Shown here: positions 3,001-18,739 of the stretch, piece after piece
Layout of the letters: every line of letters starts with the position of its first letter
Position numbering within the stretch: position 1 is the stretch's first letter
Origin: Corallococcus exiguus
Lineage (GTDB): Bacteria; Myxococcota; Myxococcia; Myxococcales; Myxococcaceae
Direction: 5' to 3'
DNA length: 64,000 nucleotides
Assembly: GCF_009909105.1 (NCBI RefSeq)
Contig: NZ_JAAAPK010000002.1
Coordinates: forward strand, 285,827-349,826
Position numbers and translations under genes: made by a program
Notes under the pieces: generated by a model
The model's database searches: none
The model's input: the letters and a program-made list of their open reading frames with translations, nothing else
What the model was told of the DNA's origin: nothing

Positions 3001-3278
3001 GCGGCGGACAGCCTCCGGTGTCGCACCAGTCGCGGGTGCACACCGTGTCCTTCCAGTCGAACCGCCAGACGGACCCGGGCTACCTCGTCCTGGGCGACAA
3101 CAACGGCCCCGACGCGCTCCACGCCTCCGAGCGCGGCGGAGTCCCCGGTGCCCACGACGAGCGCTCCGACCACGAGCGCGAACTCTCCGCGCGCACCGAC
3201 GACAGCATGCCCATTGGCATCACGCCCTTCCACGCCGACCGCAGCCAGGACGACCTCGTTCGGATGAGCCGACCATGA
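1..3278 (+). CDS. Large secreted/structural protein, 5'-partial (at least 1072 aa). Kelch-like beta-propeller segment in the middle and beta-helix-like C-terminal part. Function unknown. First gene of the spike operon seen in this window.
   Basis: Frame +3 is open from nt 3 with no start before TTG at 60, so the gene probably begins upstream of the window. Kelch-like 'GGRVFVFGGDLGG...DLWSLPVTGG...LVGGE' motifs. The stop overlaps the start of the next gene (ATGA). Confidence 0.55.
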   Translation, partial: VPERGPFIGIAPGETLDQALRRLGSADAGRVAATPRTLDLLGWARPDVALIRTARLTLVELEEVTPATVLTLPNGYRGFRVDPLDRDGPLVWLKPLERADLTGGLTARHEPAPPSLVTGRTAAMLLTPTSLAEDADAAERADAITISVDGIPLVGPESLPLLRGPLPTAPVGPAPTLRFADRGRPSPGDTWRLTLLAARENSDTVLLSTELVSDALNAVTVSPEANQLLGGTTAALLVERVSGEPRLRDVDGTWRTLTVGLRQGPPRSNAIRVDLAGAPWVARIEQHLADGSLRLARFDASADGAPWQVAELIGALPPDGPGMSLAIAGDALLLVAPDGTGKLGVWSVTGLDTATPTGTRLDTASPRQPSARLAPSLCVRGGRVFVFGGDLGGAPTGDLWSLPVTGGPWRPHAVRNRQERKAATLLSTAQGLMLVGGEAVTGELAVPVMLCDPASASPVWRPLAPLPITANLPGTLVATTTADGVEALVWADTTRPQRMTLKAGEDAWVAGLLEASGTNPPVPGEALYVDGRVLLTDPAPLPASEVVFSLGGRGYLAFLPELALLPDELLRFNVANDGAAFIEPREGQPLPLDSRPGGAYHSRDASVAGGARRYSVPGRLSRHPFQLRQRSLGPWTTLAPSIASGIVAVDPRLGRVVLQDDAPVGRVTVSARVGRGASLGAGLLPPDRRPPAAWAEPDFPFIDPPDRPGDRSGAGLPVTAWISPERAGGVLAAGGQERPIVATVADGLQAVALPALATGGQARPIVASGSPSVLTTGGQAPTDIVNVTEGSPSGSPPVLGLIGSPRLAPERLSQGLDNGLSLFAADTGAAPCIGADEHGLSLALYPGFGGSAATRVWLAGLWLAGRLDLVLARGQADLRWCNLGVPGQVGLWMPGGGHQDISARRSLPPADVELRLYGCMVGAIELPPWVHLIAAGCTFDAGDRDAVAIRAAGATVRLRHCTVLGATEAGVLEASSCAFAGEVRTDRPDLGWLRYSLLARGGQPPVSHQSRVHTVSFQSNRQTDPGYLVLGDNNGPDALHASERGGVPGAHDERSDHERELSARTDDSMPIGITPFHADRSQDDLVRMSRP

Positions 3279-6200
3279 CCGTGAAAGCGTACACCTCCAG
3301 GTCCCGCTTCGACGAAGCCCGGCGATTCTCCGGCGTCTATCAGCAGATGGGGCGCATGAGCCTCGACGCTGACTGGAACGAGGAGGTGCGGCTGCGCACC
3401 GTGGACTCGCGCCGCCGCTCCGCCGACGTCGCCGAGGGCTCGCCCGACGACGGCTTCCGAATCGTCGACACGTACCTGGTGGATCCCATCCGCAACGTGC
3501 TCGGCTGGACGGGGCAGGGCCTGCCCGCGGACGACGAGCGCATCATCCCGCGCGAGCTGCGCCTGGACCGTTACGACTCGGAGACGCTGCCGTTCGTGGT
3601 GCGCAGCCGGGGCCACATCGCGCTGCGCCGCACGCTGCCCGCGCCGTTGGATCTCACGGCAGTGCCTCGCTCGGACAGCACCACCTTCACCGCCTCCGTG
3701 CTCGTCATCGGCCTGCGCTTCGAACGGCCACTCACCGACGATGAGTTCATCGACCTGCGCGTGGTCGTCGCGGACACGGAAGGGAATGAAGCGGTCCTCT
3801 CCGCCGGTCTGGGGCAGCGGCCCACGGGATGGAACGACGTGCGCTTCCCCGTCGCCGCGTTCGCGGGCGTGGACCCGACGAAGCTGAGCTCCTGGGGCGT
3901 GCTGGGCCTGCCGCCCGTGGCCCGCACGTGGGTGGCCGCGCTGCGTGTGGAGGACGCGGCGCTGGGCGCCGATATCATTATTAGGGGTGGTGACGGGACG
4001 CTGCCGGGCGCGGGCCGCATGCTGCTCGACGGCGTGCGCATCTTCCTGGAGCAGGACCTGCGCTACTCCGTGCAGCTGGATCTACCGGAGGCGGATCCGC
4101 TGGCGGCGCTGCCCACGGACGGCTCGCGGCACCACTTCTTCTTCCTCGACTGCTGGGAGCAGACCACCACCCAGTACGACGACGCGTTCCTGGAGGAGCC
4201 CGCGCTGGACGGCCAGGACACCACCGTGCGCCTGCGGCTCGTCACCCAGGTGCGCGCGCTCCAGGGGCTGTCTGACACCGACGCGGAGGTCCTGCCCACG
4301 CCCACCAGCGGCGCACGCCTCACCACCAACATCCCGAAGGGCGCGCTGCCGGACCGCTTCCCACCAGAGCCGCTGGATCCCTGCCGAGACCGCTGCCTGT
4401 CCACGGAGAACGCCTCCACGGGCGAGGGCTACACAGGCTCCGACAACCTCCACTTCCGCGTGGAGTTCTTCCGGGGCGGAGCGCAGCCGGTGGTGCTGTG
4501 GTCGCGAGACAACGGCTCCACGGTGCTCCCGCTGACCGCGCCCGCGGCGGCGGATGCGATGACGCTCCAGGTCTCCCCCGCGAGCGCCGCGAAGCTGCGC
4601 GCGGGAGACCTCGTCGTCATCGAAGACCGGGTCACCCGGCTCCAGCCGGAAGGCCCGTCGCTGCCAGTGCTGCGGCGGCTGCGAGGCGTCCAGGCGGACA
4701 CGGGCAAGCTGGAGCTGGCGGACGCGAGCACGGTGCTCACCACGGACCCCGTGCCGCTCCCCGTGGGAGGAACGCTGGGCCGGGCCTTCAGTCCGGAGCA
4801 GGGCGCGGTGGTGCGCCGGTGGGACGGCGGCGACCTGGTGGTGCCCAACACGCGCTACCGCTTCGACGATGGCATCACCCTGGCCTTCGGCAACACGGAA
4901 GGACGCGCGACCGAATACTGGTCCTTCACCGTGCGAGTGCGCGCGGCGGACGGCGCGGCCCGGGGTGAAGTCGAGCAGCTCACGGACGCGCCCGTGCACG
5001 GTCCGGTGCACCACTGCGTGCCCCTGGCGCGAGTGACAGGAGGCGAGACGCGAATCTTCGAGGACCTTCGTCCGCGCTACCTGCCGCTCGCCCAGGTGCG
5101 AGACAGGTTGGTGGAGCTCTCCGAGCGCGTCATCGGCCCGGGCGTCTTCACGGTGGTCGTGGGCGACGGCGTGCGCAGCTTCGGCGACGTCGACCAGGAC
5201 CTGCTCGAAGGCATCACTGGCGACGAGGCGCTCCAGGCGGCGGTGGACCGGATGGGAGGGCAGGGCGGCTCCATCTTCGTGCGAGCCGGCCGCTACAAGC
5301 TGGAGCACCCCGTGCTGCTGCGCAACCTGTCCTCCGTGCACCTCCTGGGCGACGGAGAGGCCACCGAGCTGCGCACCCAGGGCTCCGGCGGAGCCTTCTT
5401 CTTGGACCGCTGCGGCCTGGATGGCGATGTGCGCATCGAGGACCTCAAGCTGGTGGAGGCCCCCTTCGAGGACGTGGTGATTGGCGGAGGCCTCCAGCCC
5501 GTGGTGAAGGCGGTGAAGACGAGCGTGGCCCTGTCGAACGGCCAGCGCTTCGTGCCGCTGGTGGAGGTGGACGACGACCGGGTGCTGGAGGAGGACGACG
5601 TGAAGCACCCGTCCGCCGAAGCCGACTTCGTGGACGTGGTCGTCGACCGCATCAAGGCCATCGTCCCGGGCCAGGGCCGCGCGGCGGGCTCCGTGGTGGC
5701 CACCCTGGTGCAGCTGCGCAAGCTGCAACGCCAGCATCCAGGCCAGCCGCTGGAGGACGTGCCGGAAGCGAAGCCGCTGCTCGACGCGCTGGCGGCGCTG
5801 CCTCACGGCGTGGTGACGCTGGCGGACTCCAGCGGCGTGACGCTGCGCCGCTGCCACATCCAGGCGAACCAGGCCGGCTCCGAGGCGACAGGCGTGCTGG
5901 TGACGGGCACCTGCGCTCGCATCGTCATCGACGAGAATCGCGTCGGCGCGGCGACAGGCATCGCGGTGGCGCCGTATGCCCCGTATCTCGCGGAGCGCTT
6001 CCTCGCGTCCTTCCCGCGCGCGGGCCTCTTCGTGGACGCGCTGGCCATCACCAACAACCGGCTCCAGCCGCTGGGGGACGCGACCACGGGCATCCACGTG
6101 GCGGACGGGCGGCTGGCGGGCGTGGAGGTGCGCGGCAACAGCGTCCAGGGCTTCCAGGTGGGCATCCTGGTGCAGGACCTGGCGGAAGGGGGACTCGCGG

Positions 6201-17793: not shown

Positions 17794-18521
17794 ACGCACT
17801 TCCTCCAAGACAGCGATTGGGCCACCTGCTGCGCTCCCTCGCGAAACAGCTTCCGGACCAGCTCGACGGCCTGTTGGAGAACGCCCGGTTCCGGGACGGC
17901 GCCTCGGCGCTCCAACGACTGGCGGATCCGGCGCACGTGGAGAAGGCCCTGGAACGGATGTCGCCAGAAGAAGCCGGCTGGCTCGCGGACCTGCTCACAG
18001 AGCGCTGGTCCTGGATCGCGGACGTCCAACTTGAGCCCGAAGTGGCCATCGTCGCGCCAGACGAACTCTGGCTGGGCGCGGAACCCATCCGCGTGCCGTT
18101 GTCGCTCGCGGCGGTGGGGCTGGACGAAGGATTCGAAGCGGTCTGGGAAGGCGCGGTCCTCCCAGGCCCACCCTCGGCCAGTGCCACGCTCCTCGCGAGA
18201 CCTCCCGAAGACAAGACACCCGGAGTCGCCCGGGTCCGCGCCCAGGTCCGAGCGAGCGTGAAGGGTCAGCGCTGCGTGCTCATCGCGCAGGCGCAGGTCA
18301 CATTGAGGCGCCCGTCGGTGGTGGTGAGCGACGACCGGCGCAGGCTGCTGGTCCAGGACCACACGGGACGCCCGGCCGTGGGCTGCCGTCTGGAGATTGG
18401 CCCGGACGTGCACCTCACTGGCGCAGGAGGCCTGGTGGACCTGGAAGTCCCAGCGCAGCCCGGTGTGTCGCTCAAGCTGGAAGGCATCCCCGCCGGACGC
18501 ATTCCCGGAGGCAACCCATGA
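17790..18521 (+). CDS. Hypothetical protein (243 aa), beta-rich C-terminus.
   Basis: ATG at 17790 overlaps the upstream stop (ATGA). Its stop overlaps the next ATG. Confidence 0.5.
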   Translation: MNALPPRQRLGHLLRSLAKQLPDQLDGLLENARFRDGASALQRLADPAHVEKALERMSPEEAGWLADLLTERWSWIADVQLEPEVAIVAPDELWLGAEPIRVPLSLAAVGLDEGFEAVWEGAVLPGPPSASATLLARPPEDKTPGVARVRAQVRASVKGQRCVLIAQAQVTLRRPSVVVSDDRRRLLVQDHTGRPAVGCRLEIGPDVHLTGAGGLVDLEVPAQPGVSLKLEGIPAGRIPGGNP

Positions 18522-18739
18522 AGACAATGACGTCCCAGACGCGGAAGACACCCGACCGCAAGCCCGCCATGAACAAGGCCATCGCGCCGTCGCAGCAGCC
18601 CAAGACGGACACAGCCAGGGCCCAACTGGGAACCGCGGCCAAGGGGCCCACGATGAAGGCCGCGGCTGGCGGCAGCTTCAAGGCGAAGAGCGCCCCCCGA
18701 GTCACGGCGAACCCCAACATCCGGATGCCAAAGAAGTAG
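18518..18739 (+). CDS. Small basic Lys/Ala/Pro-rich protein (73 aa). Last gene of the plus-strand operon.
   Basis: ATGA-coupled to the upstream gene. Followed by an intergenic hairpin. Confidence 0.4.
   Translation: MKTMTSQTRKTPDRKPAMNKAIAPSQQPKTDTARAQLGTAAKGPTMKAAAGGSFKAKSAPRVTANPNIRMPKK

Follow-up and report, generated by a model that had tools for sequence, protein, structure and literature searches.

In lineage-II extracellular contractile injection systems (eCIS), afp8 is split into separate gp27 and gp5 open reading frames (ORFs) in subtypes IIa to IIc, IIa and IIc have two copies of afp11, IIa and IIb keep afp12 and afp13, and afp14 is generally absent (Chen et al. 2019, PMC6899500). 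The same study describes two or three extra conserved genes without a known domain in the lineage and an afp10 (PAAR) gene in IIa. A 2026 survey defined five N-terminal domains that anchor eCIS tail fibres to the baseplate, DUF6519 (as eBAP5) among them, and found Myxococcota to be enriched in eCIS loci with multiple fibres (PMC12923769). Our literature search found no specifically described Corallococcus eCIS and, as far as we could find, no structurally characterised lineage-IIa particle. Here we analyse a plus-strand gene array at positions 3275-18739 of a 64-kb stretch of Corallococcus DNA (the window; G+C ~70%), which an earlier sequence-only reading had presented as a spike apparatus without recognisable sheath or tube partners. 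The array is real and correctly delimited, and it is the distal half of an eCIS rather than a sheathless novelty. Based on homology and synteny, we consider it highly probable (about 0.9) that window positions 3-18739 form the 3' half of one coupled operon of ~24 genes and ~28 kb for a lineage-II, subtype IIa-like eCIS.

The operon continues upstream into baseplate, tube and sheath genes

An exact-protein look-up placed the window on a 157-kb Corallococcus contig of GCA_965139275.1 (locus L001), the source contig. Directly 5' of the first gene in the window, g1, and coupled to it, this contig encodes a 1255-aa Baseplate_J protein (J; 25.6 bits, cut-off 21.1) and an 838-aa protein (J2) matching TIGR02243, "putative baseplate assembly protein" (E=2e-43; 148.7 bits, just below the cut-off of 155.8); J and J2 are Afp11/J paralogues. 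The window edge truncates g1 (<3-3278, + strand), leaving residues 166-1256 of a 1256-aa protein. At full length, g1 matches Tail_P2_I (E=4.6e-7, above cut-off) and carries a TIGR02242 match (4e-4) at its N-terminus, followed by Kelch repeats; because the window begins at residue 166, the Tail_P2_I domain was invisible to the sequence-only reading. By these matches, g1 is an Afp12/gpI-like baseplate wedge protein with a Kelch beta-propeller.

The genes further upstream could be read in two sister genomes, C. exiguus (L002) and Corallococcus sp. bb12-1 (L003), whose J orthologues are 99% and 85% identical. The 9 kb 5' of J begins in both with genes for a 652-aa protein, a 773-aa sheath (Phage_sheath_1/1C) and two gp19 tube proteins (Phage_T4_gp19). 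It continues with 291-aa and 70-aa proteins, a CIS_tube tube initiator (27.9 bits, cut-off 27), a separate 92-aa LysM/Phage_tail_X (gpX) protein matched under the cut-off, a 395-aa gpD/gp27-like hub and a gp25 protein (GPW_gp25, 4e-14), after which J follows. Three tests (Phage_GPD 3e-4, VgrG_rel 4e-4, PDB VgrG 0.15) each align the hub weakly, though colinearly, with the gp27 half. Family scans, including one for the Afp16 cap, returned no match for the 652-aa first gene. As a side observation, the 291-aa protein between the tube genes and the initiator (L002 6323-7198) contains two cysteine pairs (CPAPGC ... CPKC) and shows faint T4_baseplate and DUF6760 signals.

A tblastn search of the 64-kb window with the upstream proteins found no sheath, tube, gp25 or J homologues. 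The earlier statement that the window lacks all four is therefore literally true, and it is an effect of the window edge. The headline built on it does not survive, since the operon runs into J, TIGR02243 and Tail_P2_I proteins and the sheath and tubes are present in sister genomes. The fallback that the sequence-only reading had offered, a larger eCIS with sheath and tube upstream of the first nucleotide, turned out to be right, with baseplate genes located 5' on the contig and the sheath and tube genes in L002 and L003.

Start-stop coupling runs through the whole operon

Genes were called from frame analysis of G+C at third codon positions (GC3), from ORF lists and from the genes annotated on the source contig. 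These calls place ten plus-strand ORFs in 3275-18739 (g2 to g10, with g5b between g5 and g6), or eleven counting the truncated g1. Starts and stops overlap at 8 of the 10 junctions, six by 4 nt (ATGA/GTGA), one by 1 nt (TGATG) and one by 32 nt (g5b/g6), while at the remaining two the genes are separated by 31 and 4 nt. This bears out the near-universal start-stop coupling first noticed across 3275-18739. The upstream genes are coupled likewise, with 1-4-nt overlaps throughout, indicating that coupling is an operon-wide trait typical of tail-like operons and not peculiar to this half. The array as first drawn stands; within it, the starts of g3, g8 and g9 needed correction (g3 encodes 113 aa, not 161, and g8 403 aa, not 524), and the 64-aa g5b had been missed.

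A 209-nt gap separates the array from a convergent minus-strand operon. Within this gap, a repeat search identified an inverted repeat (18815-18841) with perfect 13-bp arms, AAACCTGTCCGAC and GTCGGACAGGTTT, and a 1-nt spacer, which is likely a bidirectional terminator.

g5 corresponds to half of a split VgrG

The assignment of g5 (11461-12648, + strand, 395 aa) as a gpV/gp5-type spike holds in profile searches. The protein matches Phage_base_V at E=6e-24 (84.6 bits) and Gp5_trimer_C at E=1.5e-6 (28.8 bits, slightly under the model cut-off of 30.9). A profile of 14 g5 orthologues matches the C-terminal halves of VgrG, AlgoCIS, tCIS, Pvc8 and T4 gp5 structures, at chain residues ~370-580, and the matched entries include T4 gp5 beta-helix structures. 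In the VgrG_rel model, the upstream hub covers positions 64-174 and g5 covers 371-451. We considered whether the hub and g5, both 395 aa, might be duplicated spikes and rejected this, as BLASTP found no similarity between them and they represent opposite halves of VgrG. By homology, g5 is the gp5/gpV half, comprising the oligonucleotide/oligosaccharide-binding (OB) fold and beta-helix, of a split Afp8/VgrG. The split had looked odd to the sequence-only reading; a separately encoded gp5 is a published lineage-II trait.

Beyond the beta-helix, g5 carries a clade-specific, highly conserved C-terminal domain of ~95 aa, the best-conserved stretch of the protein. This region has no Pfam match, and the last ~90 positions of the g5 profile have no PDB match. 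Searching with the domain against 1.84e9 representatives returned ~25 clusters, three of them at E<1e-30.

g2 is placed in a recognised class of eCIS fibres

The giant g2 (3275-10882, + strand, 2535 aa) begins with a DUF6519 match (E=5e-8; 32.4 bits, cut-off 22.4) that spans residues 7-53 only, a partial coverage of the domain. It also contains a right-handed beta-helix (Beta_helix, E=9e-12) and a PHROG tail spike match, and is homologous over ~2000 aa to giants of Micromonospora and other loci. The N-terminal DUF6519, the long modular build, the eCIS locus and the position after Afp12 are the traits of an eBAP5 fibre, and by these traits g2 is an eBAP5-anchored eCIS tail fibre or receptor-binding protein. 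Where the earlier description saw an unrecognised mosaic giant, DUF6519 puts g2 in a recognised class. The following gene, g3 (10914-11255, + strand, 113 aa), encodes a helical protein; every locus has an ORF of 101-116 aa in this position, though its sequence is weakly conserved. From its position only, we infer that g3 may encode a fibre assembly chaperone.

The spike-proximal genes are conserved as a block across phyla

We read the genomic context of the array in metagenome contigs and in 20 GTDB genomes, comprising 11 Corallococcus species, Byssovorax, three Micromonospora, Cellulomonas, Acidimicrobiales and others. The order and sizes of the fibre, g4, spike, g6, g7, g8 and g9 are kept in at least 20 loci from Myxococcota and Actinobacteria. 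The shared arrangement runs from the Kelch/gpI gene through the DUF6519 giant, genes of ~110 and ~68 aa, the ~400-aa spike, and genes of ~65-85, ~535, 720-825, ~390-450 and 150-243 aa to a giant toxin and an AAA ATPase. In all loci read, the module lies downstream of the Kelch/gpI and DUF6519 fibre genes. Identity across phyla is 51-63% for the spike, 37-53% for g4, 32-41% for g6, 28-33% for g7 and 31-44% for g9. Homologues are rare: a set of 5.8 billion proteins yielded only 16 for g7 and 82 for g6. Co-conservation, which the sequence-only reading had named as a check on its proposal, is thus evident in both gene order and gene size. Its expectation that the ORFs it could not identify would match no ordinary non-phage family also held in profile scans, as Pfam, NCBIfam and PHROG scans gave no family match for g3 and nothing usable for g4, g5b, g7, g8, g9 and g10. 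PDB profile searches with g4, g6, g7 and g9 produced no real matches, leaving g6 and g7 without a counterpart among solved structures and g9 without a Pfam or PDB match.

Immediately before the spike gene and translationally coupled to it, g4 (11255-11464, + strand, 69 aa) encodes a small, mostly beta protein found in every locus. It is 93-97% identical within Corallococcus, and its sole family match is MM0924_fam, below threshold. We speculate that g4 might be a spike partner or chaperone. On the other side of the spike gene, g5b (12653-12847, + strand, 64 aa) encodes a charged, helical protein; the ORF is annotated on the source contig, and each of the other loci has one too (62-87 aa). In 12 of 14 loci, which span different phyla, its stop codon gives an overlap with g6 of exactly 32 nt. 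The constant overlap is explained by conservation of the g6 codons (Ala-Glu/Asp-Leu, GCT GAx CTx) together with the GGAGG Shine-Dalgarno sequence ahead of the g6 start. A programmed frameshift between g5b and g6, as in tail chaperones encoded ahead of a tape measure, was rejected as unnecessary: the frames differ by +1, and g6 has its own conserved GGAGG and start.

The product of g6 (12816-14426, + strand, 536 aa) has a strongly hydrophobic helical hairpin near its N-terminus (residues 60-103) and a helical tail at its C-terminus. Its alpha/beta core is conserved and contains the invariant motifs SFDDPGD..RP and PDW. Of 50 members of the family, ten match phrog_305 (tape measure) weakly, at best 2e-7, and a few match other tape-measure PHROGs. 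Distant but securely assigned relatives on IMG/VR contigs (hhalign 99.4%) are 312-379 aa long and without the C-terminal helical tail. In one of these clusters (L032, g6-family region 8024-10603) the order is hub, spike, g6-like gene, then gp25 and J, and in another (L029, region 8420-10960) it is spike, a 156-aa ORF, g6-like gene and gp25. These relatives adjoin spikes in compact contractile-tail clusters, which argues that the family is spike-linked and wider than this eCIS clade. We had entertained g6 as the tape measure itself and downgraded this reading, given that the clusters of its relatives hold a separate ORF at the tape-measure position. We therefore read the g6 family as putative spike-adjacent baseplate or lumen proteins with a potentially membrane-active hairpin. 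Partial g6-like matches were also seen in three further loci (L030, L033 and L034; GC 0.32, contigs of 190-424 kb).

Three further genes complete the conserved block. For g7 (14423-16585, + strand, 720 aa), a predicted model (predicted local distance difference test 80.5, predicted template modelling score 0.71) contains a long N-terminal helix, a four-helix bundle and C-terminal beta domains, and we regard g7 as a multidomain protein restricted to this clade. The g8 protein (16582-17793, + strand, 403 aa) has a conserved motif of ~45 aa at its N-terminus and a basic motif at its C-terminus, with a disordered Pro/Arg/Ala-rich stretch of ~300 aa between them. It is poorly conserved in sequence and nearly constant in length, at 387-453 aa from Myxococcota to Actinobacteria. 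Proline and arginine make up 16% and 17% of g8 (proline 15-26% across loci), and its GC3 is low, 0.62 compared to ~0.9 in its neighbours, with ATGA overlaps at both ends. A ruler or tether would fit this constant length, which does not in itself amount to evidence for either. The g9 protein (17790-18521, + strand, 243 aa) varies from 154 to 243 aa around an N-terminal region of ~150 aa that is conserved in all lineages. The last gene of the array, g10 (18518-18739, + strand, 73 aa), encodes a basic, Lys/Ala/Pro-rich protein with tblastn matches only in Corallococcus-type loci.

A convergent operon encodes an Afp15-type ATPase and putative cargo

The minus-strand operon facing the array lies within the window, and the eCIS ATPase and cargo in it were missed in the sequence-only reading. 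It includes an Afp15-type AAA+ ATPase (29830-32271, - strand, 813 aa) with AAA (1e-24), winged-helix WHD (3e-8) and Pvc16_N (8e-4) matches. Orthologues of this ATPase flank the module in four distant loci (L004, L019, L022 and L024). The C-terminal ~130 aa are highly conserved, and three of five orthologues match Pvc16_N weakly there (best 7.7e-5, sub-threshold). In this clade, the ATPase C-terminus may represent a fused Afp16 cap.

Between the ATPase and the array lies a gene for a 2670-aa giant (21786-29798, - strand), a putative cargo effector. It matches Annexin (5e-21) and, at its C-terminus, the metallopeptidase-like DUF6782 (4e-5; 23.4 bits, under the 27-bit cut-off). Its N-terminus is long, Pro/Ala-rich and disordered, and hydrophobic segments occur at residues 1588-1656. 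Over 1745 aa it is 29% identical to the giant found directly after g9 in an actinobacterial locus (L020). Giants in that position elsewhere carry eCIS_core/DUF4157, Ntox1, annexin or contact-dependent inhibition (CDI)-type nuclease domains, the variation expected of polymorphic cargo. Three smaller convergent genes (18949-21773, - strand) encode, by Pfam, a 504-aa protein with FGE-sulfatase-like and HEAT matches and proteins of 256 and 174 aa. All three are kept beside an annexin giant in a metagenome locus (L006) and could be effector accessory, maturation or immunity genes.

Past the ATPase, the segment 32325-38331 holds genes for a flavin reductase and an Fe/Mn superoxide dismutase on the plus strand and, on the minus strand, a Ser/Thr kinase (zf-HC2, PD40/WD40 repeats), an SGL/NHL beta-propeller protein and a sigma-70 region-4 protein.

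Possible mechanism and alternative explanations

By homology to related machines, the g5 trimer would dock with the gp27-like hub, and around this hub-spike the wedge (gp25, J, J2 and g1) and the sheath-tube would assemble. The g2 fibres and the Kelch domain would bind the target surface, and sheath contraction would then drive the tube and spike through the envelope, releasing cargo loaded by the ATPase. Other steps are proposed with low confidence. The g6 protein might travel with the spike, within or beneath the hub, and insert its hairpin into the target membrane in the manner of a tape measure or translocon. An extended g8 of constant length could act as ruler or tether, the missing PAAR tip might be replaced by g4, the g5 C-terminal domain or both, g3 might be a fibre chaperone, and g7 and g9 might be structural or cargo-adaptor parts. 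Taken together, we tentatively suggest that g4, g5, g5b, g6, g7, g8 and g9 form a spike-proximal sub-assembly supplying, by other means, functions that seem to be missing from this eCIS clade (a PAAR tip, an Afp14 tape measure and a separate cap). In this proposal, which is possible and short of probable, a helical g5 C-terminal domain with or without g4 would replace PAAR, alongside the hairpin protein g6, g7 and a proline-rich, non-helical ruler or tether, g8.

Several points weigh against the IIa-like eCIS assignment and the roles attached to it. No particle has been observed, and the system is known here from homology and synteny alone. The genes from sheath to gp25 were seen in the sister genomes L002 and L003, with the window's own contig read as far as J, and the Pvc16_N, Phage_GPD and LysM matches all fall under curated cut-offs. 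Scans of the operon ORFs against Pfam, NCBIfam and PHROGs gave no PAAR match, and a separate gene for the Afp16 cap (DUF4255/Pvc16_N) was not found either. The roles of g3 to g9 are guesses, with g6 and g7 lacking a structural match. In L032 the place of a tape measure is occupied by a distinct, lysozyme-bearing ORF of 800 aa, which speaks against the g6 family being the tape measure itself. Finally, Streptomyces lineage-II systems act inside the cell, so that "extracellular" is a putative label for this locus.

Two alternatives would remove the locus from the eCIS altogether. A self-contained, new spike-centred injection or adhesion apparatus working without sheath or tube would fit the lack of sheath, tube, gp25 and J homologues in the 64-kb window and the lack of a known fold for g6 and g7. 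We give this hardly any credence, since the operon runs unbroken into J, J2 and gpI on the contig, sheath and tubes occur in sister genomes, and the module always sits 3' of the Kelch/gpI and DUF6519 fibre genes. Every recognisable part is a phage-tail homologue, and distant g6 relatives lie on IMG/VR "viral" contigs near spike, gp25 and lysozyme-bearing ORFs, as a defective prophage tail or R-type tailocin would predict. Such an origin is nonetheless very improbable beside the eCIS markers of the locus, namely the Afp15-type ATPase with its Pvc16_N-like domain, the DUF6519 fibre and the giants with eCIS_core/DUF4157 or other toxins. In the ~38 kb inspected there are no capsid, portal or lysis genes, and none of the genes scanned, from the upstream DUF1622 gene to window position 38 kb, encodes a capsid, a terminase or TssJLM. 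Moreover, the locus is kept at the same operon position in at least 11 Corallococcus species, and GenBank phage genomes gave no match to g6 or g7 (50,697 genomes) or to the g6-like protein of L032.

The other two alternatives concern what g5 to g9 do and where the machine resides. A cell-associated contractile injection system (CIS), cytoplasmic or membrane-anchored like the Streptomyces CIS or phage tail-like particles (SLP) or the cyanobacterial tCIS, would make g6-g9 an anchoring or firing-control complex. The intracellular location of Streptomyces lineage-II systems, the transmembrane-like hairpin in g6 and the sharing of the module between monoderm Actinobacteria and diderm Myxococcota all favour it. 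It is rather unlikely in view of the giant fibres, their beta-helix and Kelch domains for binding and the typical eBAP5 anchor, and of the g6 relatives between spike and gp25 in compact tail-like clusters, which point to the baseplate; in addition, no module gene has a signal peptide or several transmembrane segments. The block also lies between structural genes and toxins, g6 looks membrane-active, and tape-measure-derived effectors are known in actinobacterial CIS, so that g5-g9 could be read as a variable payload, a cargo island of VgrG plus effectors or adaptors in the manner of the spike, chaperone and toxin sets of type VI secretion systems (T6SS). Against this, the block keeps its order, sizes and sequences across phyla (spike 51-63%, g6 32-41%, g7 28-33%), family scans found no toxin or immunity domain in g4-g9, and the truly variable polymorphic toxins, with unrelated domains, start right after g9. 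We regard a cargo island as improbable and favour the reading of the array as the distal half of a lineage-II, IIa-like eCIS operon.

Under that reading, the locus is one more lineage-II eCIS, in a predatory myxobacterium, of a type already known and catalogued bioinformatically (dbeCIS, eCIStem). Its residual value is a defined set of six to seven co-conserved spike-proximal genes, clade-specific and uncharacterised, with a g6 family that reaches other contractile-tail clusters. Knowing what g6, g7 and g8 do would fill gaps in lineage II, namely how tail length is set without Afp14, what forms the spike tip without PAAR and how annexin or DUF4157 cargo is attached, and such answers could inform particle engineering for protein delivery.

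Comparison with known systems

We assigned the subtype by the text criteria of Chen et al. 2019 only. By these, the locus has the core of sheath and tube, LysM/tube initiator, Afp8, Afp9 with Afp11, and Afp15, as well as the IIa traits of a split afp8, two copies of afp11, retained afp12 and afp13, and no afp14. The afp10 (PAAR) gene of IIa was not detected among the operon ORFs, and we therefore call the locus IIa-like only.

Like lineage II in general, the locus combines a sheath, gp19 tubes, LysM/initiator, gp25, Afp11/J and an Afp15 ATPase, with DUF4157 toxins in related loci. It resembles IIa in the split afp8, two afp11 genes, divergent afp12 and afp13, no recognisable afp14 and conserved genes without domains. 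In contrast to IIa, it has no detected PAAR, and its gp5 gene follows the fibre gene, at ~15 kb from the gene for gp27. Compared to lineage II as described, it has six to seven conserved unknown genes rather than two or three, and its cap-like Pvc16_N signal sits at the ATPase C-terminus rather than in a separate gene.

Phage P2 and R-type pyocins share with this locus a separate hub and spike (gpD and gpV), a gp25(W)-J-I wedge with the fibre gene after I, and a spike of OB fold plus beta-helix. The gene order differs from that of P2 (V-W-J-I-H-G ... D), the locus adds an AAA ATPase and toxin cargo without linkage to a phage genome, and no solved apex is related in sequence to the g5 C-terminal domain. 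Relative to Afp8/Pvc8 of the subtype Ia antifeeding prophage (Afp) and Photorhabdus virulence cassettes (PVC), and to VgrG of the T6SS, g5 aligns to the C-terminal halves and the hub weakly to the N-terminal halves. Theirs is one fused protein with a PAAR cap, whereas here there are two genes, no PAAR and an extra domain of ~95 aa. Judged by description, g6 also recalls Streptomyces Tme (PMC11126660) and Sle1 (bioRxiv 10.1101/2025.11.06.686954), which are helical, have a hydrophobic or transmembrane hairpin, associate with the spike or initiator and have DUF4157 partners. Tme-like traits are also seen in the 2670-aa annexin giant, which is the largest ORF and has disordered regions and hydrophobic segments. 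Unlike Tme and Sle1, which are encoded upstream of the sheath or baseplate genes, g6 is a conserved core gene that follows the spike and carries no variable C-terminal toxin domain.

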